Below the pieces are notes generated by a model, which worked only from the letters and a program-made list of their open reading frames with translations, did no database searches and was not told the DNA's origin. From assembly GCA_964482515.1 (NCBI GenBank), contig CAYZXT010000009.1, positions 16,251-80,250 of the forward strand: a DNA stretch of 64,000 bases. Direction: 5' to 3'. This stretch comes from an uncultured Elusimicrobia bacterium. Lineage in GTDB: Bacteria > Elusimicrobiota > Elusimicrobia > FEN-1173. Shown here in pieces: positions 1,785 through 45,925 of the stretch (its first letter is position 1; every line of letters starts with the position of its first letter). The translations under genes and the position numbers were made by a program.

Positions 1785-1838
1785 AATTCTTCATCCTCCT
1801 TTCAGCGTTTCTTCAGACCCAAGATGTAGTCTCTTCGC
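1785..1838 (+). promoter_or_regulatory. Conserved ORF6N leader, copy L1
   Basis: AATTCTTCATCCTCCTTTCAGCGTTTCTTCAGACCCAAGATGTAGTCTCTTCGC abuts ATG 1839. It aligns with 24249-24303 and 26288-26344 over the shared blocks TCTTCATCC, TTCTTCAGA and A(A/G)A(A/T)GTA. Confidence 0.7.
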
Positions 1839-2375
1839 ATGACGATCCAATCGATCAACGATATCCACCGGATGATTTACCTGATCCGCGGGCGGAAGGT
1901 GATGCTCGACCGCGACTTGGCCGCGCTCTACGGCGTTCCCGTGAAACGGCTGAATGAGCAGGTCCGGCGGAATCGAAAGCGATTTCCGTCCGATTTCAAG
2001 TTTCAGCTCTCAAGGGAAGAGGCGGGTTTTCTAAGGTCGCAAATTGCGACCTTAGAGCCGGGGCGGGGCAAATACAGTAAATATGTGCCGGATGCATTCA
2101 CCGAACATGGGGCCGTCATGTTGGCCAGCGTTTTAAGCAGCCCGCGCGCCATTCAAATGAGTGTTGATGTTGTCCGGGCCTTCATTGAAATGAGGCGAAT
2201 CATTTCTGCAACCCAAGGGTTGGAGGAGAAAATGGCGGCACATGAGAAGAGCATAATTGGCTTAACGAATGACTGCGAAATTTGTTCGAACTTCTCAAGC
2301 CGTTGCTGGAGGCGCCGCCCAAAACACCGGGCACTGTCGGCTTCCGCTAGTTCGGTGCCGGCGTTGATTTATTAA
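1839..2375 (+). CDS. ORF6N (KilA-N-related) DNA-binding domain protein, copy 1; the C-terminal tail appears frameshifted
   Basis: MTIQSINDIHRMIYLIRGRKVMLDRDLAALYGVPVKRLNEQVRRNRKRFPSDFKFQLSREEAGFLRSQIATLEPGRGKYSKYVPDAFTEHGAVMLASVLSSPRAIQ is the classic ORF6N pattern. After about 2279 the +1 frame (NLFELLKPLLEAPPKTPGTVGFR*, stop 2348-2350) matches paralog 2 (MFDLLQPLLDGPTKKPGKIGFG), whereas the annotated frame does not. Confidence 0.8.
   Translation: MTIQSINDIHRMIYLIRGRKVMLDRDLAALYGVPVKRLNEQVRRNRKRFPSDFKFQLSREEAGFLRSQIATLEPGRGKYSKYVPDAFTEHGAVMLASVLSSPRAIQMSVDVVRAFIEMRRIISATQGLEEKMAAHEKSIIGLTNDCEICSNFSSRCWRRRPKHRALSASASSVPALIY
2031..2055. repeat. Perfect 25-nt palindrome inside ORF6N copy 1 (12-bp arms)
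   Basis: CTAAGGTCGCAA-A-TTGCGACCTTAG, checked base by base. It encodes LRSQIATL. Confidence 0.9.
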
Positions 2376-22369: not shown

Positions 22370-22792
22370 GTGAGCACTCATTCTGAGAAGCGGAATTGCG
22401 TGCTTTATTCCGGCCGGTTCTATTCGGCCGAATGGTATTACAGGGAGGACGGCGGGATGCCGGCTCTCGAATATTATCGGGAACTCCCTATCCATGATCG
22501 AGTGCGGCTATTACAGATCATTAAGCACCTGTGCGACGCTCCCTACGGGACAATCCTTCCCGTGACGCTTTACAGGATCGAAGATCGGGAAAACAAGATT
22601 TACGCGTTTAAGCCGAGGGACGAGCGATTCTTCAGTTTTACGATGGAGGGCGCAAGGGTCATCGTTACGAACGCTTACCGCAAGCATTCACAACAGATGA
22701 CCAAGGCGGATCTGGAGTCCTTGAAAACAGCTGTTCGCTATCGGAACGATTATTTGAGGCGCCTGAAAGAGGGGACATATTATGAAGGCTAA
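22370..22792 (+). CDS. RelE/ParE-superfamily toxin (Gp49/DUF891-like)
   Basis: ...KIYAFKPRDERFFSFTMEGARVIVTNAYRKHSQQMTKADLE. The GTG start is preceded by GAGGAG, and the gene overlaps the downstream HTH gene by 11 nt. Confidence 0.65.
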   Translation: MSTHSEKRNCVLYSGRFYSAEWYYREDGGMPALEYYRELPIHDRVRLLQIIKHLCDAPYGTILPVTLYRIEDRENKIYAFKPRDERFFSFTMEGARVIVTNAYRKHSQQMTKADLESLKTAVRYRNDYLRRLKEGTYYEG

Positions 22793-23132
22793 AAAGAAAA
22801 TCAAAAAGGCAAAGAGCACCTTTGATCGGGAAATGGAAAACCCGGAATTCAGGAATCTTTTCGAGGAATCTTGGCCCGCCTTCCAAGTGGAAGTCCAGCT
22901 GCTGAAAGCCTTGGAAGGCAAGCAATGGTCCTATTCCGACCTCGCGAAGGTATTGCACACGCAGAAGAGCGCCATTTCGCGCGACCTGAAAGGCGGCGGC
23001 ATTCGGTCTGCTTCCATCACGCGGATCGCGAAGATGGCGGAAGCCCTGGGAATGAGATTTATCCCGTTCTGCGTCTCCGAGAAGAAGGCGAGGGAAATTC
23101 TTCCCGCTATCAAGAAACTCCTGGCCGCGTAA
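22782..23132 (+). CDS. HTH (XRE-like) antitoxin
   Basis: WSYSDLAKVLHTQKSAISRDLKGGGIRSASITRIAKMAEALGMRF is a helix-turn-helix pattern. The gene is small and translationally coupled to the toxin gene. Confidence 0.65.
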   Translation: MKAKKKIKKAKSTFDREMENPEFRNLFEESWPAFQVEVQLLKALEGKQWSYSDLAKVLHTQKSAISRDLKGGGIRSASITRIAKMAEALGMRFIPFCVSEKKAREILPAIKKLLAA

Positions 23133-23141
23133 TAGGGATTC

Positions 23142-23167
23142 GTGCCGGAGTTGACACGTTGACAATC
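23142..23167 (+). repeat. Copy 3 of the GT(G/A)CCGGAGTTGACA motif
   Basis: GTGCCGGAGTTGACACGTTGACAATC, 10 nt after the antitoxin stop and 32 nt before ATG 23199. Confidence 0.7.
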
Positions 23168-23198
23168 GACCAGCCTATTCTTTAAGTACAATACCTCC

Positions 23199-24242
23199 AT
23201 GCCGAAAGAATCCATCCCCTCGGTCGCCCATCCCGCCTACGCCAAGCTCCGTTCCGCCGTCCACAAAACCCTCCTCCTCGGTCAGAAACAAATCGAACAA
23301 GCCAAAGTCCGTACCTACTACGAAACCGGAAAACACATCCAAGAACATATCGCCCGCTACGGTTCGCGCTCCGAGCATTACGGCGCTCAAGTGGTGGAGA
23401 AGCTTTCGGTTGATTTGGGGATTAGCACCCGGGTCTTGCGGCAGTGTGTGCAGTTCGCCCGGAACTTCAAGATTGTGAACGCGCGTTCACAATCTTTGCC
23501 GGCCCAATTGCCTTGGACGCATTACCGTCAACTGATGACCATTCCGGATGAGGACGCGCGGATTTCCCTGATGAAAAGGGCCGAGAAGTCCGAATGGAGC
23601 GAACGCCAGCTGGCGGAGAAGATCCGCCTTGAGGTGCGAGAAGCAAAGTCCCCGTCAACCAACGGCGGGCATAGTTCAATGGTAGAAAAGAAGTATCCCA
23701 AGCTCATTCCCAAGCGCGGCGAGCTTTACACGTACCGCCTCATTGCGCCGGAAGCGGTTGATGGCGAAGCGGGTCTGTGGATTGATTTGGGTTTCCAGGT
23801 GCGGCGCACCTTTCCACAAACAGGTGCCATGGCTAGCGCCAAGGGCGGACAGATCGTGGAATCCAAAAAGACGGGGGAAATCTATTCCGCGGTCCCGTCC
23901 AAGCGGACGGAGGCGGACTTGTTCACCTTCCAGGCGCCGGTGGAGCGGGTGGTGGACGGCGACACGCTGATCGTGAACGTCGACCTGGGGTTCGACACGG
24001 GCGTGCGGCAATACCTGCGGTTGCGCGGCATCAATTGCCCGGAGCTGGACACGCCGGAGGGCAAGCGGGCCAAGGCCTTCGTGGAAAAGGAATTGGGGAA
24101 AGCGCGGCGGATCATCCTGACGAGCTCCCGGTCCGACAAGTACGACCGCTACCTGGCGGACGTGTTTATTGAGTCCACCAACGGCGAACGATATCTGAAC
24201 CAGGCGCTGCTGGACGAAGGCCTCGCGGTCCGGATGGAATAG
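23199..24242 (+). CDS. DUF1016_N domain fused to a staphylococcal-nuclease (SNase)-like domain
   Basis: The N-terminal 150 aa parallels the YhcG N-domain (…WTHYRQLMTIPDEDARISLMKRAEKSEWSERQLAEKI). The C-terminus reads VVDGDTLIVNVDLGF...YLRLRGINCPELDTPEGKRAKAFVEKEL...DKYDRYLADVFI...YLNQALLDEGLAV. Confidence 0.75.
   Translation: MPKESIPSVAHPAYAKLRSAVHKTLLLGQKQIEQAKVRTYYETGKHIQEHIARYGSRSEHYGAQVVEKLSVDLGISTRVLRQCVQFARNFKIVNARSQSLPAQLPWTHYRQLMTIPDEDARISLMKRAEKSEWSERQLAEKIRLEVREAKSPSTNGGHSSMVEKKYPKLIPKRGELYTYRLIAPEAVDGEAGLWIDLGFQVRRTFPQTGAMASAKGGQIVESKKTGEIYSAVPSKRTEADLFTFQAPVERVVDGDTLIVNVDLGFDTGVRQYLRLRGINCPELDTPEGKRAKAFVEKELGKARRIILTSSRSDKYDRYLADVFIESTNGERYLNQALLDEGLAVRME
23809..23845 (-). repeat. 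Dispersed island repeat, copy D (inverted, inside a CDS)
   Basis: The reverse complement reads CCCTTGGCGCTAGCCATGGCACCTGTTTGTGGAAAGG. On the + strand it encodes TFPQTGAMASAKG in the linker of the DUF1016_N-SNase protein. Confidence 0.65.
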
Positions 24243-24248
24243 CCCTCC

Positions 24249-24303
24249 CAATCTTCATCCCTCCTTCAGTCGTTCTTCAGACTTAAAAAGTAATCTCTCC
24301 TCC
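24249..24303 (+). promoter_or_regulatory. Conserved ORF6N leader, copy L2
   Basis: CAATCTTCATCCCTCCTTCAGTCGTTCTTCAGACTTAAAAAGTAATCTCTCCTCC, followed by an ATG (24304) that hits a stop after 4 codons. Confidence 0.7.
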
Positions 24304-24334
24304 ATGAATTGTGCATGATGAATGGGAGGACTAG

Positions 24335-24359
24335 AGGTGGTCGCAAATTGCGACCGCCT
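24335..24359. repeat. Near-perfect palindrome in the ORF6N-2 5' region, sharing a 17-nt core with the copy-1 in-gene palindrome
   Basis: AGGTGGTCGCAA-A-TTGCGACCGCCT has one T:G mismatch. The core GGTCGCAAATTGCGACC (24339-24355) is identical to 2035-2051. Confidence 0.8.
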
Positions 24360-24386
24360 TCGACCACTCAAATTCTTGGAGGTTTT

Positions 24387-24914
24387 ATGCGAGCTGTAAT
24401 GAAAACCGAACACATTCAATCGATGATATTCCTGATTCGCGGGCGCAAGGTCATGTTGGACCGTGATTTGGCGGCGCTTTATGGCATTGCCACAAAGGTC
24501 CTTAAGCAGGCTGTTAAGCGGAATCATTTGCGATTCCCGGAGGATTTCATGTTTGAACTGTCTGCGGAAGAGCAGTCAAATTGGAGGTCACAATTTGTGA
24601 CCTCCAATTCTTCCCTGAATAAGGGACTCCGGTGGCGTTCAATGGCATTCACTGAGTATGGTGTGGCCATGCTTTCCGGCGTTCTGAAAAGTGAAAGGGC
24701 CGTTCAGGTTAATATCGCCATCGTTCGGGCATTTATCGACATGCGGCGGATGATTTCGGAAACACGAGGGTTGGCGGAGAAATTGGCGGAGCATGAGAAA
24801 AAGATCGGGGGACTGGCGAACGATGTCCGGCATATGTTCGACCTGCTACAGCCGTTGCTGGATGGACCCACTAAAAAACCCGGGAAGATCGGGTTCGGAA
24901 TGCGACAGATTTAG
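24387..24914 (+). CDS. ORF6N domain protein, copy 2 (apparently intact)
   Basis: MRAVMKTEHIQSMIFLIRGRKVMLDRDLAALYGIATKVLKQAVKRNHLRFPEDFMFELSAEEQSNWRSQFVTSN...[35 protein letters not shown] lies 4 nt before ATG 24387; the frame is open from 24309. Confidence 0.85.
   Translation: MRAVMKTEHIQSMIFLIRGRKVMLDRDLAALYGIATKVLKQAVKRNHLRFPEDFMFELSAEEQSNWRSQFVTSNSSLNKGLRWRSMAFTEYGVAMLSGVLKSERAVQVNIAIVRAFIDMRRMISETRGLAEKLAEHEKKIGGLANDVRHMFDLLQPLLDGPTKKPGKIGFGMRQI
24579..24609. repeat. Perfect 31-nt palindrome inside ORF6N copy 2 (15-bp arms)
   Basis: AATTGGAGGTCACAA-T-TTGTGACCTCCAATT, checked base by base. It encodes NWRSQFVTSN. Confidence 0.9.
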
Positions 24915-25570
24915 CGGGCGATGAGGGCGTTGTACGCCCGGATGGCGGCGTAGGCGTCGTTGGCGGCGTAGAGGAGTTGCAGTTCGCTGAGGATCGGGAG
25001 CCCCCAGTTGGACGTGCCCTGCTTTTTGGATTTGAGGAAGCGTTGTTTGAAGAGCAGCGCGATGCCCACCTTGGAGCCCACGCCGCGGCCGAAGCCCTTT
25101 TCGGCGAAGAGCGTTTCGAGGTCCACCACGCCGTGGGGCTCGACGCGCAGTTTCTTGCGGATGCGCGACAGGTCGTCCCCCAGGCCGAAACCCACTTTTT
25201 TGAGGCTCTTAAAAGAGATGAGTTCGGCGGCGGCCTGGCGGCATTCCGGCTGGTTCAGCATGAACACGTAGCCGCGCGTGGCGGTGGCGAACTGGACGAC
25301 GTGGGGGCCGGTGGAGACCTGTCCTTTATGGAAGGTGGGTTTGGATTCGGTGTCGAAGCCCACCACGCTTTCGGCCGCGAGCTCCTTGAACGCCCGCTGC
25401 GCGAGGGCCGGCGTGTTCACCGCGAGGATGTCCCCGCGGCGCAGGGCGTGGAACGGCGGAAGGGCCGCCATTTCCTCGCGCGTGGGCCAGTGGGCCGGGC
25501 GCTGGCGGTTCGGGACGCGCGGCGGCGCGGAGGGTTTGAACAGTTTTTTGAGCCAGCGGCGGATGACCAA
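24911..25570 (-). CDS. 3'-5' exonuclease, DEDDy (RNase D / WRN-exo-like) family
   Basis: VVGFDTESKP (DxE), KKVGFGLGDDLSRI and LLYAANDAYAAIRAY (Yx3D). Confidence 0.75.
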   Translation of the reverse strand: MVIRRWLKKLFKPSAPPRVPNRQRPAHWPTREEMAALPPFHALRRGDILAVNTPALAQRAFKELAAESVVGFDTESKPTFHKGQVSTGPHVVQFATATRGYVFMLNQPECRQAAAELISFKSLKKVGFGLGDDLSRIRKKLRVEPHGVVDLETLFAEKGFGRGVGSKVGIALLFKQRFLKSKKQGTSNWGLPILSELQLLYAANDAYAAIRAYNALIAR

Positions 25571-25576
25571 GGGGGA

Positions 25577-26212
25577 TTACGGTTTCCGGAACAGCGAGGC
25601 GTCCACCGGGCCGGGGGTGAACTCGACGGCTTCCTCGGTCCGCCGGAAGACGGTGGTGTTGGCCTGGGAGGAGTGCAAAACGATTTCGGCCTTCAGGACC
25701 GCGCCCGTCTCGGCGTCCACCCAGGCGTCGACGCTGCGCACGGAGTCCGGCAATTTCACCTTGGCGTGGTAGCGCCGGGCCTTGCGGCCCGCCACTGTTT
25801 CGGTCTCGCCCGCCTCGCCGGTGTAGGCCTTCCGCCAGAAGCGGATCTCGTGGAGCTCCGCCTCCGTGGGTTTGTGGGAATACTCGGAGGGCTCCGTGGC
25901 GTGCGCGCCGTCGGGCGAAGGGGCGTAGACGATCTTTTCGAACAGGGTCTCGCCGTCGAAGAACCGCGTCACCTTGTATTCGGCGGGGGGCGCCATGAAG
26001 CGGTCCTCCCGCGCGTCGGCCTCGGTGCGGAAGCGCTTCCCGTCGGTGTGGATCCTGACGCGCTCCGCGGTTTTCGTGCCGGCCGTTTCGTTCTCCCGGA
26101 TGACCGTCCAGGTGCCGCTGAAGGGCGAGTCCTGGACGCGGCTGGGCGAGCATTTCTTGAGCAGGAAAGCGAAGGCGGCGACGGCGAGGACGGCCAGGAG
26201 CAGGTTCTTCAT
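25577..26212 (-). CDS. Exported or anchored protein of unknown function
   Basis: It begins MKNLLLAVLAVAAFAFLLKKCSPS and is soluble and beta-rich afterwards. There is a 6-nt gap to the downstream exonuclease gene. Confidence 0.5.
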   Translation of the reverse strand: MKNLLLAVLAVAAFAFLLKKCSPSRVQDSPFSGTWTVIRENETAGTKTAERVRIHTDGKRFRTEADAREDRFMAPPAEYKVTRFFDGETLFEKIVYAPSPDGAHATEPSEYSHKPTEAELHEIRFWRKAYTGEAGETETVAGRKARRYHAKVKLPDSVRSVDAWVDAETGAVLKAEIVLHSSQANTTVFRRTEEAVEFTPGPVDASLFRKP

Positions 26213-26287
26213 GGCCTGATTGTAAGAAACAACCGCCGCCGGTTCAAGGGCGGAGATTCACCCGACCCGCTTCCGAGGCCTTCCTCC

Positions 26288-26344
26288 CAATCTTCATCCT
26301 CCCTCCCGCGGTTCTTCAGAATCAAAAAGTAACCTTTCCTGCGG
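26288..26344 (+). promoter_or_regulatory. Conserved ORF6N leader, copy L3
   Basis: CAATCTTCATCCTCCCTCCCGCGGTTCTTCAGAATCAAAAAGTAACCTTTCCTGCGG is fused directly to mid-gene ORF6N sequence. Confidence 0.7.
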
Positions 26345-26551
26345 TTCCCGGAAGATTTCGCATTTCGCCTGAATAAAGAGGAATATGAGTCTTTAAGATT
26401 CCAAACTGGAATCTTAAAGAGAGGACAGCACGCCAAGTATCTGCCATTGGTATTCACTGAGCAAGGCGTTGCCATGCTCTCGAGCGTTCTCCGGAGCAAA
26501 CAGGCGGTTCAAGTGAACATCGCCATCATGCGAGTTCCCCTACTCCCTTGA
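26333..26551 (+). pseudogene. ORF6N relic (copy 3), lacking both the N-terminal and C-terminal parts
   Basis: A frame without a start codon reads ...[64 protein letters not shown], then PLLP*. The IRG.KVMLD.DLA..YGV N-terminal segment is missing. Confidence 0.8.
26390..26420. repeat. Perfect 14-bp-arm palindrome inside the ORF6N relic
   Basis: TCTTTAAGATTCCA-AAC-TGGAATCTTAAAGA, checked base by base. It encodes [11 protein letters not shown]. Confidence 0.9.
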
Positions 26552-26577
26552 TAGTAAGTAGCTTATAAACTACACTT

Positions 26578-26925
26578 ATGGAGGCCGGGTTGGAAATCAA
26601 ACCCCTGAAGATTGAATATTATTACGCGAGGGATGGCCGGGTTCCCTATAGGGAATGGTTTTATTCCTTGAAAGATATGAAAACCCGGCAGATTATCATT
26701 GCACGCTTAACGCGGGTGGAGCGGGGATTGTTGGGAGATTCTAAGTCCATTGGTTCGGGCGTTCATGAACTCCGGATTGATAAAGGACCAGGATATCGTA
26801 TTTATTTTGGACGACAGGGCGATCACGTCATCCTGCTTTTATTAGGCGGCACTAAGAGCAGCCAAAGGAAAGACATTGAAAAAGCCCATGATTATTGGGT
26901 GGATTATTTAAGGAGACAAGGATGA
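26578..26925 (+). CDS. Addiction-module killer protein (RelE/HigB-like, COG3657-type)
   Basis: ...DGRVPYREWFYSLKDMKTRQIIIARLTRVERGLLGDSKSIGSGVHELRIDKGPGYRIYFGRQGDHVILLLLGGTKSSQRKDIEKA. Confidence 0.8.
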   Translation: MEAGLEIKPLKIEYYYARDGRVPYREWFYSLKDMKTRQIIIARLTRVERGLLGDSKSIGSGVHELRIDKGPGYRIYFGRQGDHVILLLLGGTKSSQRKDIEKAHDYWVDYLRRQG

Positions 26926-27236
26926 AGAAGCCCACGTACCATGAAGATCTCATTGAAAGCTTGAAGGACCCTAAATACGCCTTGGGGTATCTGAACGCCT
27001 GTTTGGAAGATGAGGACGAAGGGGTGTTCCTCCTGGCATTGAAGCATGTGGCCGAAGCCCATGGCGGGTTGAGCGGACTGGCGAAGAAAACGGGATTGAA
27101 CCGGGAACATCTTTTTCGAATGTTGTCCAAGAACGGGAATCCGCGCCTGGAAAACCTGCGGCAGGTGGCCGGCGCGTTCGGGTGGAAGATCCGCTTCGTG
27201 GAGATGAAATCCCCGAAACTGCGCCGCGCCGCTTAA
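26922..27236 (+). CDS. Addiction-module antidote protein (HigA-family HTH)
   Basis: MKKPTYHEDLIESLKDPKYALGYLNACLEDEDEGVFLLALKHVAEAHGGLSGLAKKTGLNREHLFRMLSKNGNPRLENL. It has an ATGA start/stop overlap with the toxin gene. Confidence 0.8.
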   Translation: MKKPTYHEDLIESLKDPKYALGYLNACLEDEDEGVFLLALKHVAEAHGGLSGLAKKTGLNREHLFRMLSKNGNPRLENLRQVAGAFGWKIRFVEMKSPKLRRAA

Positions 27237-45685: not shown

Positions 45686-45925
45686 AATAAAAAACCCACT
45701 TCCAACGCGGAAATGGGTAACGGAGAATCAAACGCCGTAGATGCCGGCGGCCTCCCTATAAATAGGAACAACGCTACCGGCGAGCCCTTCCCGCGAAGGA
45801 AAATCTACCTTTTAGTCGACCGGACTTAGACGCGTTTGCGCGCGCCCATTACCGTTGCGGGGCAGTCCCGGAATCACACCGGGTTCCTCTAAAAGGGAGT
45901 GAGCGAAAGAACTGGCCTGAGTATG
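45686..45925 (-). ncRNA. Cobalamin riboswitch with a terminator expression platform
   Basis: The minus strand reads ...AGAGGAACCCGGTGTGATTCCGGGACTGCCCCGCAACGGTAATGGG...AAGTCCGGTCGAC...GCGGGAAGGG... (the conserved AGGGAA/GGTG.GA.TCC/CCCGC.AC.GTAA core plus a B12-box-like segment). It is followed by CCCATTTCC-gcgt-TGGAAGTGGG-TTTTTTA, and then the receptor gene. Confidence 0.75.

Follow-up and report, generated by a model that had tools for sequence, protein, structure and literature searches.

Auxiliary operators lying within coding sequences are known from the gal operon, where OI, the partner of OE, is inside galE, and from the lac operon, where O2, the partner of O1, is inside lacZ, while centromere-like sites occur as parS within spo0J/parB and as the sopC repeat array downstream of sopB in plasmid F. 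Palindromic sites beside or inside the gene of a binder are thus already known (gal OI, lac O2, parS in parB, sopC). Families of palindromes also occur as the intergenic clusters of repetitive extragenic palindromes and bacterial interspersed mosaic elements (REP/BIME), imperfect palindromes of about 30 nt found with REP-associated tyrosine transposases (RAYTs), and as the baculovirus homologous regions (hr), arrays of imperfect palindromes of about 30 bp often located beside bro genes, the Bro-N domain of which is a relative of KilA-N/ORF6N; IE-1 and not BRO is the binder of the hr palindromes, of which no in-gene copy is known. Imperfect inverted repeats can, in addition, be perfected by quasipalindrome template-switch mutagenesis, in which a hairpin templates the correction. 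The present analysis concerns a palindrome situated 5' of ORF6N-2, a gene of the ORF6N family carried by 64,000 nucleotides of an uncultured Elusimicrobia bacterium (contig CAYZXT010000009.1, positions 16,251 to 80,250; hereafter the window, with a G+C content of 60%). Across phyla, this class of palindrome is tightly and specifically associated with ORF6N genes, and the palindrome of the window is one instance of this recurrent feature. With a probability of about 0.42, we read this satellite palindrome as a functional cis-element of the ORF6N-2 cassette, most probably one bound as DNA by an ORF6N dimer, and not as debris of another ORF6N gene of the window, copy 1. The features on which this reading bears are the following.

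About 1785 to 1838, plus strand: leader of ORF6N copy 1, abutting the ATG at 1839.
1839 to 2351, plus strand: coding sequence of ORF6N copy 1.
2030 to 2056: palindrome in the coding sequence of copy 1, TCTAAGGTCGCAA-A-TTGCGACCTTAGA.
About 24243 to 24304, plus strand: leader of ORF6N-2 (copy 2).
24305 to 24386, plus strand: 82-nt stretch between this leader and the ORF6N-2 ATG (24387).
24315 to 24333, plus strand: inverted partial leader copy, complementary at 16 of 19 positions (84%) to 24240 to 24258, the leader start with the upstream stop codon.
24335 to 24359: satellite palindrome, AGGTGGTCGCAA-A-TTGCGACCGCCT, arms 24335 to 24346 and 24348 to 24359 (12+1+12), with one T:G mismatch.
24371 to 24386, plus strand: ribosome-binding region of ORF6N-2, AATTCTTGGAGG, with GGAGG at 24378 to 24382 and then TTTT.
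24387 to 24914, plus strand: coding sequence of ORF6N-2, 175 amino acids, with the PF10543 ORF6N domain.
24579 to 24609: palindrome in the coding sequence of ORF6N-2, AATTGGAGGTCACAA-T-TTGTGACCTCCAATT (15+1+15), encoding NWRSQFVTSN.

Three ORF6N loci are present in the window, all preceded by a common leader of about 60 nt. The initial annotation had described this leader as abutting the start codon in copy 1 and as separated from it by about 80-95 nt in copy 2; the interval is indeed present and measures 82 nt. It had also identified the core of the intervening palindrome with that of copy 1, and the 17-nt core GGTCGCAAATTGCGACC is found without mismatch both at 24339-24355 and at 2035-2051 in the coding sequence of copy 1. 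When up to three mismatches are allowed, the sole further place in the window is ORF6N-2's own palindrome (24586-24602), from which the satellite palindrome differs, as had been stated. Altogether, six strand-matches of the core are present in the window against 0.37 expected, a number reached in 0 of 100 shuffles. Over the palindrome, the minus strand reads ...GRRRSQFATTSSPP..., that is RRSQFATTS, the ORF6N-motif-like peptide already pointed out, and, because the sequence is palindromic, the plus strand also reads an ORF6N-like peptide, RWSQIATA.

The proposal that the interval holds a fragment of a copy-1-type gene stands as far as the palindrome is of the kind found in ORF6N coding sequences, but neither its link to copy 1 nor its nature as a gene fragment was upheld. 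Identity to copy 1 ends at the 17-nt core, the arms being AGGTGG/CCGCCT in the satellite palindrome and CTAAGG/CCTTAG in copy 1, and this core is a common variant across the ORF6N family. Better matches than copy 1 exist elsewhere: an IMG/VR contig (L215) with an ORF6N-like gene encoding ...ERWSQIATTSPGK... (ERWSQIATTS) matches the satellite palindrome at 26 of 27 nt, and a Syntrophobacteria metagenome-assembled genome (MAG; L167) carries AGGTGGTCGCAAATTGCGACCACCT at 2783-2807, a 24/25-nt match about 195 nt 5' of an ORF6N start. The latter palindrome is one of several that bracket a TATAAT, an arrangement conserved in another locus (L147). With a family hidden Markov model (HMM) built from more than 100 ORF6N homologs, no ORF6N-like coding above 3 bits was detected on either strand in six-frame translations of 24305-24386. 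The satellite palindrome is thus best described, from its sequence, as ORF6N-type, neither specifically copy-1-type nor a recognisable gene fragment, so that capture of a piece of copy 1 need no longer be assumed for the window.

In order to place this palindrome within the family, 83 ORF6N loci from other genomes were surveyed, 80 of them from a scan of 185,579 species genomes and three from metagenome contigs; they span Bacteroidota, Syntrophobacteria, Elusimicrobia and other groups. The core motif counted was TC[AG]CA[AGT]-N1-3-[ACT]TG[CT]GA, with the following result.

Inside ORF6N coding sequences: 60 matches in 45.8 kb, 1.31 per kb.
Outside the gene, at 350 nt or less: 48 matches in 59.9 kb, 0.80 per kb.
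Beyond 350 nt: 3 matches in 373 kb, 0.008 per kb.

Near the genes, the motif is therefore about 100 times denser than farther off. At least one external palindrome was present in 26 of the 83 loci, located 41-250 nt upstream or 19-320 nt downstream of the ORF6N gene. External palindromes form arrays of up to seven, as found downstream of Flavobacterium ORF6N genes, with an irregular spacing of 28-56 nt, which is too tight for gene relics, and with outer arms that vary among the sites of one array. Within the genes, long perfect palindromes of 18+1+18, 13+3+13 and 16+1+16 occupy the same codons in ORF6N-2 homologs found in unrelated metagenomes, and some ORF6N genes of the sample are devoid of a palindrome of at least 9 bp. 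The satellite palindromes as a class are defined by the core dyad TC[AG]CAA-N1-3-TTG[CT]GA together with extended complementary arms; the one in the window has both this core dyad and the arms, lies less than 350 nt from an ORF6N gene and recurs in unrelated genomes (L167, with L147 as a related case). It is also typical in not matching the palindrome of the neighbouring gene itself.

Some other arrangements were observed in the surveyed loci. Tandem ORF6N paralogs are frequent, a Rhodothermia MAG having a run of up to four or five (L204, 205-2869, one of them split) and several others having pairs (L163, L179, L157, L193), each copy with its own palindrome variant. L147 (at ~700-725) and L167 (at ~2715-2741) have an extra dyad, CTTGAGGAGCCA-CTT-TGGCACCTCAAG, on the upstream side of their three or four TC[AG]CAA-type palindromes; it is of the type carried by RCQxGT-motif ORF6N genes, so that one promoter region holds several ORF6N palindrome types.

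The symmetry of the palindromes appears to be maintained at the nucleotide level. Among distinct in-gene sequences, the Ser codon before Gln and the codon two after Gln occur as TCA with GTG (Val) in 30 cases and as TCG with GCG (Ala) in nine, with no mixed combination, and the outer Ser codon follows the Trp or Leu codon of the other arm (TGG-TCC, TTG-TCA). These synonymous choices indicate that in-gene palindromes are kept symmetric by nucleotide-level selection at synonymous sites. Outside the genes, three palindromes beyond the ORF6N stop codon occupy constant positions in four Flavobacterium species, separated by spacers which have diverged beyond alignment, and at site 1 TCACAA/TTGTGA has changed to TCGCAA/TTGCGA, in both arms together. 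Such a pattern is the signature expected of functional elements and not of neutral debris. Since it is the core sequence that is conserved and not pairing alone, sequence-specific recognition is argued for; the arm symmetry of 12-22 bp, which differs between sites, implies that pairing matters too, whether as a cruciform or hairpin, in RNA, or through hairpin-templated correction.

Compared with the known systems, the arrangement at ORF6N-2 resembles gal and lac in that a dyad 5' of the start codon is accompanied, at a distance of a few hundred bp in the coding sequence, by another site of its family, with a dimeric or tetrameric DNA binder expected on both. Unlike in gal and lac, the internal site is in the presumed regulator's own gene, always at the RSQxxTS peptide motif, and it is a candidate site, known from sequence; the ORF6N palindrome is also near-perfect over 25-45 bp, its symmetry being kept at synonymous codon positions. 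With parS and sopC it shares the location of palindromic sites in or beside the gene of a DNA-binding protein, here a predicted one, sometimes as arrays (up to seven in Flavobacterium). However, there is no consistently adjacent ParA partner, the spacing of 28-56 nt is irregular, the outer arms differ within an array, and the ORF6N genes are in chromosomal accessory islands, often several per genome. REP/BIME elements are likewise palindrome families clustered intergenically and flanking a particular protein gene, whereas ORF6N palindromes are not dispersed (3 of the 51 extragenic matches are more than 350 nt away, 48 being near), are also present in coding sequences and accompany a protein in which no transposase fold or motif was found. 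The neighbours of ORF6N-2 are ORF6N, nuclease fusion, exonuclease and toxin-antitoxin genes, without the Y1 transposase of the REP/RAYT pairs. As with baculovirus hr, palindrome arrays of about 30 bp adjoin genes of the same broad DNA-binding domain superfamily, a resemblance which serves as a lead only, the organisms and sequences being different. Template-switch mutagenesis, finally, would explain without selection the joint arm changes (TCA-GTG versus TCG-GCG, none mixed) and inverted duplications like that of 24240-24258 and 24315-24333; it is, however, a mutational process and not a function, and it leaves unexplained the fixed position in the gene and the conservation of external palindromes between diverged spacers.

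Regarding the protein, the predicted model of ORF6N-2 (predicted local distance difference test, pLDDT, of 76) consists of a winged-helix-like N-terminal domain, a low-confidence loop and a 55-residue C-terminal helix, the palindrome-encoded residues running from the end of helix 60-70 into the beginning of the loop. This fold bears a weak resemblance to DNA-binding winged-helix/APSES-type domains, and the long C-terminal helix could dimerise. A sequence search of the PDB returned no solved structure for the ORF6N family, and a full-text literature search found ORF6N mentioned only in passing, with no target site described. In the mechanism proposed here, an ORF6N protein with a winged-helix/KilA-N-like N-terminal domain and a long, possibly dimerising helix would bind, as a dimer, the dyad ...GGTCRCAA-W-TTGYGACC... 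as double-stranded DNA. The satellite palindrome, whose centre is 40 nt 5' of the ORF6N-2 start and 247 bp from the centre of the in-gene palindrome, is situated between the upstream leader and the ribosome-binding site, and by occupying this site the protein, whether a paralog or the ORF6N-2 product, would keep transcription of ORF6N-2 low. Repression might act as a roadblock or through a loop joining the external site to the internal one, leading to auto- or cross-regulation among paralogs. Dyad symmetry and a location between the upstream control region and the start codon are what an operator would have; protein binding, an ORF6N protein as the binder, DNA and not RNA as the target, and repression are all steps that we infer. 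Distances between external and internal palindromes range from 233 to 452 bp and show no helical phasing obvious by eye, without a formal test.

An operator through which a copy-1-type protein controls copy 2 had been offered as the second possibility in the initial annotation. In the more general form of an ORF6N site it is the better fit, considering the 26 of 83 loci with nearby palindromes and the conservation in Flavobacterium, but the external sites are not closer to the palindrome of their neighbour: in the other loci they agree with the neighbour gene's own palindrome at a mean of 9.8 of 13 positions as compared to 10.0 for the palindromes of other loci (permutation p 0.95), so that a simple own-operator model does not fit. 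This is one of several points that weigh against a functional DNA site. External palindromes are less perfect than in-gene ones (median perfect arm of 6.5 versus 15 bp), and some have ORF6N-like flanks, namely those of L192 (HMM positions 53-83, E 2e-6), L202 (HMM positions 52-82, E 7e-4) and L147, while L190 has a 5' half gene that stops at the palindrome, directly upstream of a complete ORF6N gene; some external copies do, by these similarities, originate as gene fragments. Operators are not usually arranged as arrays downstream of a gene. A search of 24100-25000 detected no sigma-70-like promoter, although this consensus may not be that of the host. The arms, of 12-22 bp, differ between sites and are symmetric within each of them, and are longer than what a dimer usually reads, which points to base pairing (cruciform or hairpin) or to templated symmetrisation. 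According to a broader alternative, ORF6N genes would be self-contained modules of a protein plus its site. A 25-45-bp palindrome in the coding sequence at RSQxxTS, both strands of which encode the same peptide, would be recognised as a hairpin or cruciform by ORF6N and copied to the flanks in a hairpin-dependent manner, and satellite arrays would wire paralogs into a cross-regulatory or self/non-self network in accessory or defence islands, the palindrome before ORF6N-2 being one such wire. We regard this picture as unlikely.

Among the rival explanations, a rearrangement relic is a doubtful one: the palindrome would be the debris of template switching, of fold-back synthesis or of an older leader-driven ORF6N gene that was replaced, left behind without function between the leader and an ORF6N-2 gene that arrived later. 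Similar damage is visible in the window, where a truncated third ORF6N copy consists of a leader-fragment fusion that kept its palindrome and where copy 1 is probably frameshifted. In addition, a single base separates the inverted partial leader copy from the satellite palindrome, such a repeat being present in only 0.7% of Markov-resampled regions, and a weak minus-strand match to the leader profile is seen at 24332-24310; this inverted copy indicates that local DNA rearrangement shaped the 82-nt stretch and so counts, like the points above, against a functional site. A relic would also account for arms that match the real coding variant ERWSQIATTS of L215, for the ORF6N-like flanks in L192, L202 and L190, and for external copies being on average more degenerate than in-gene ones. 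On the other hand, no coding remnant flanks the palindrome of the window, which is nearly perfect (24 of 25 positions fit pairing) with nothing else of a gene left. Conservation across species, diverged spacers, compensatory changes and a 24/25 copy 5' of an unrelated ORF6N gene are all unlike neutral debris. Recombination between paralogs at the hairpins, as proposed in the initial annotation, was not supported either, as a crude segment-correlation test across 85 genes gave no sign of a recombination breakpoint at the palindrome, segment similarity correlating across it (0.43) as well as within its sides (0.37 and 0.42).

A hairpin acting in RNA was also considered. In its favour, the arms mismatch at a single position, which is T:G when read in sense. 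The transcript of ORF6N-2 would form a stem of 12 bp containing a G-U pair and, together with CCUCC/GGAGG pairing, this stem would control mRNA stability or ribosome access; alternatively, a processing or protein-binding hairpin would be common to the copies in the coding sequence and the 3' flank. The 82-nt stretch can be folded as one long hairpin (113-nt RNA fold of -39.4 kcal/mol, z -4.1, with 0 of 200 shuffles as stable) in which the Shine-Dalgarno sequence is paired with the leader end: 24371-24382 and 24299-24310 (CCTCCATGAATT) are complementary at 11 of 12 positions, the leader-end CCTCC pairing with GGAGG. Strict arm symmetry, including that of the outer arms, is as pairing predicts, and the external copies of other loci, all within about 350 nt, could be on the transcript. 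Against this, the mismatches of imperfect copies do not favour the G:U type over the A:C type on the sense strand (20 versus 29 at 48 external sites, 3 versus 11 in genes), counts which give no support to a sense-strand RNA hairpin and do not exclude one. The core sequence is furthermore conserved beyond pairing, transcription may not cover the leader end, the protein is predicted to adopt a fold of the double-stranded-DNA-binding type, and an E-value scan of Rfam 15 over 24150-24700 returned no family match, only a chance microRNA-like hairpin (E 3). An RNA element of this sort is therefore considered unlikely. Far less probable still is that the similarity to the ORF6N motif is fortuitous and the hairpin a chance or generic one, for example the terminator of the gene upstream. 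Hairpins rich in G and C are common, and a near-identical one, GGGTGGTCGCAATTTGCGACCGCCC, with the same T:G mismatch as that of the window, is located at 699-721 of L216, an AT-rich phage contig, right after a capsid-like gene and with no ORF6N within 5.5 kb; it may represent either a stray copy of the element or a terminator hairpin that resembles it by chance. Yet an exact 17-mer common with a paralog 22 kb away has a negligible expectation, the motif is enriched about 100-fold beside ORF6N genes, and the terminator scan called none at the palindrome, its stem being followed by TCGACCACTC without the T run of an intrinsic terminator. With regard to an integron attC site, no integrase was seen among the neighbour genes examined and the palindrome is near-perfect with a 1-nt centre; no formal attC model was applied.

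As for the 82 nt themselves, the same sequence is present in three Logan contigs of the source organism, and its first codons, ATG AAT TGT GCA TGA, constitute a four-codon remnant or a mini-ORF. No orthologue of ORF6N-2 closer than 65% was found in the protein database, the closest in the 185,579 species genomes being 54-57% identical, and none of the close relatives examined has the leader or an upstream palindrome. That the interval is an insertion, as had been assumed, is not established. In the nearest relative reached (L220), whose neighbouring exonuclease gene is 76% identical, the place corresponding to ORF6N-2 is occupied by toxin-antitoxin genes without ORF6N, and two leaders (minus strand, 2626-2552 and 3582-3513) are each 5' of an operon for a Gp49/HigB-like toxin and an HI1420-type antitoxin, each with its own 5' region. 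One is followed by ...GTAATCTGTTCCCCATG and then by 47 nt with a good promoter, TTGACG-17-TACAAT; the other by the GTAGCTTATAA(A/C)CTAC dyad, the same as before the toxin-antitoxin operon after copy 3 of the window. In L220 a leader precedes the operon orthologous to that after copy 3 without any ORF6N piece. Because the leader precedes toxin-antitoxin operons in this relative, the 82 nt need not be an insertion and may be a 5' region that arrived with ORF6N-2, upstream palindrome included, an arrangement that a third of the ORF6N loci elsewhere also have.

These comparisons indicate that the leader is not specific to ORF6N but precedes varied accessory cassettes, with cassette-specific sequence downstream, and it seems to mark their upstream edge. 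Leader copy 2 immediately follows the DUF1016_N-SNase stop codon. The leader core is CCCAATCTTCATCC-N-CTTCAG-N-GTTCTTCAGA-N-AAAAAGTAATCT, and its layout is one of three CTTCA repeats with a spacing of about 11-12 nt and then AAAAAGTAATCT. An nhmmer profile of the three leaders recovered these copies (E 5e-20 to 8e-18) and no others in the window, where the next match had an E of 1.3. Folds of five leader copies (z -1.3 to +0.4) gave no support to a structured leader RNA, and no sigma-70 match was detected in the leader. A scan of metagenome contigs for TCTTCATCC-N12-TTCTTCAGA was rejected, its 120 loci being all chance-like or antisense-coding (LKK...DEE), as 18 specified bases are too few.

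Around ORF6N-2, an accessory island extends from 22370 to 27236, its gene content being different in the nearest relatives. Its other members and the third ORF6N locus are as follows, together with the sole match at Rfam gathering level in the window.

22370 to 23132: Gp49-like toxin and helix-turn-helix antitoxin genes, island member.
23199 to 24242: DUF1016_N-SNase nuclease fusion, island member, directly upstream of leader copy 2.
24911 to 25570, minus strand: 3'-5' exonuclease, island member.
26283 to 26340, plus strand: leader of ORF6N copy 3 (truncated).
26342 to 26533, plus strand: ORF6N fragment of copy 3, family HMM positions 50-115, 87.5 bits.
26390 to 26420: palindrome of copy 3, TCTTTAAGATTCCA-AAC-TGGAATCTTAAAGA, a perfect 14+3+14.
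26578 to 27236: second toxin-antitoxin pair, island member.
45762 to 45922, minus strand: cobalamin riboswitch RF00174, 32.7 bits for a gathering score of 31.5.

In copy 3, the leader is joined straight to an internal ORF6N piece, the first residues of which are RFPEDF, with a toxin-antitoxin operon downstream, and the sequence of its palindrome is unlike those of the other two ORF6N copies. Copy 1 has a clear ORF6N similarity (E 2.2e-30) and a change of frame near ~2280 (region ~2268-2351), with positions 4-150 and 148-171 of the family HMM matched in two different frames, so that it is probably frameshifted, either as a pseudogene or by a sequencing error. A dyad, GTAGCTTATAAACTAC, is present at 26558-26573 just 5' of the Gp49-like toxin gene (26578-26925), with a counterpart in L220, GTAGCTTATAACCTAC, on the minus strand at ~3466-3451; it is probably the operator of the adjoining toxin-antitoxin operon.

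The ORF6N family (PF10543) is very large, with more than 7,900 relatives from a single search, and is almost uncharacterised. As far as the literature was searched, three of its features are apparently undescribed: a near-perfect palindrome present across the family at one and the same conserved peptide motif, the synonymous covariation that keeps it symmetric, and conserved satellite arrays of the same palindrome in the flanks of the genes. Modest as a single insert, the palindrome before ORF6N-2 opens onto a general and testable property of this family, which offers what appears to be a clean natural case of synonymous-codon selection for nucleic-acid symmetry. If the palindrome is a recognition element, ORF6N proteins would have a defined DNA or RNA ligand, the invariant RSQxxTS motif would be explained as a nucleic-acid constraint written into protein sequence, and the regulatory links between ORF6N paralogs would become readable from sequence alone.

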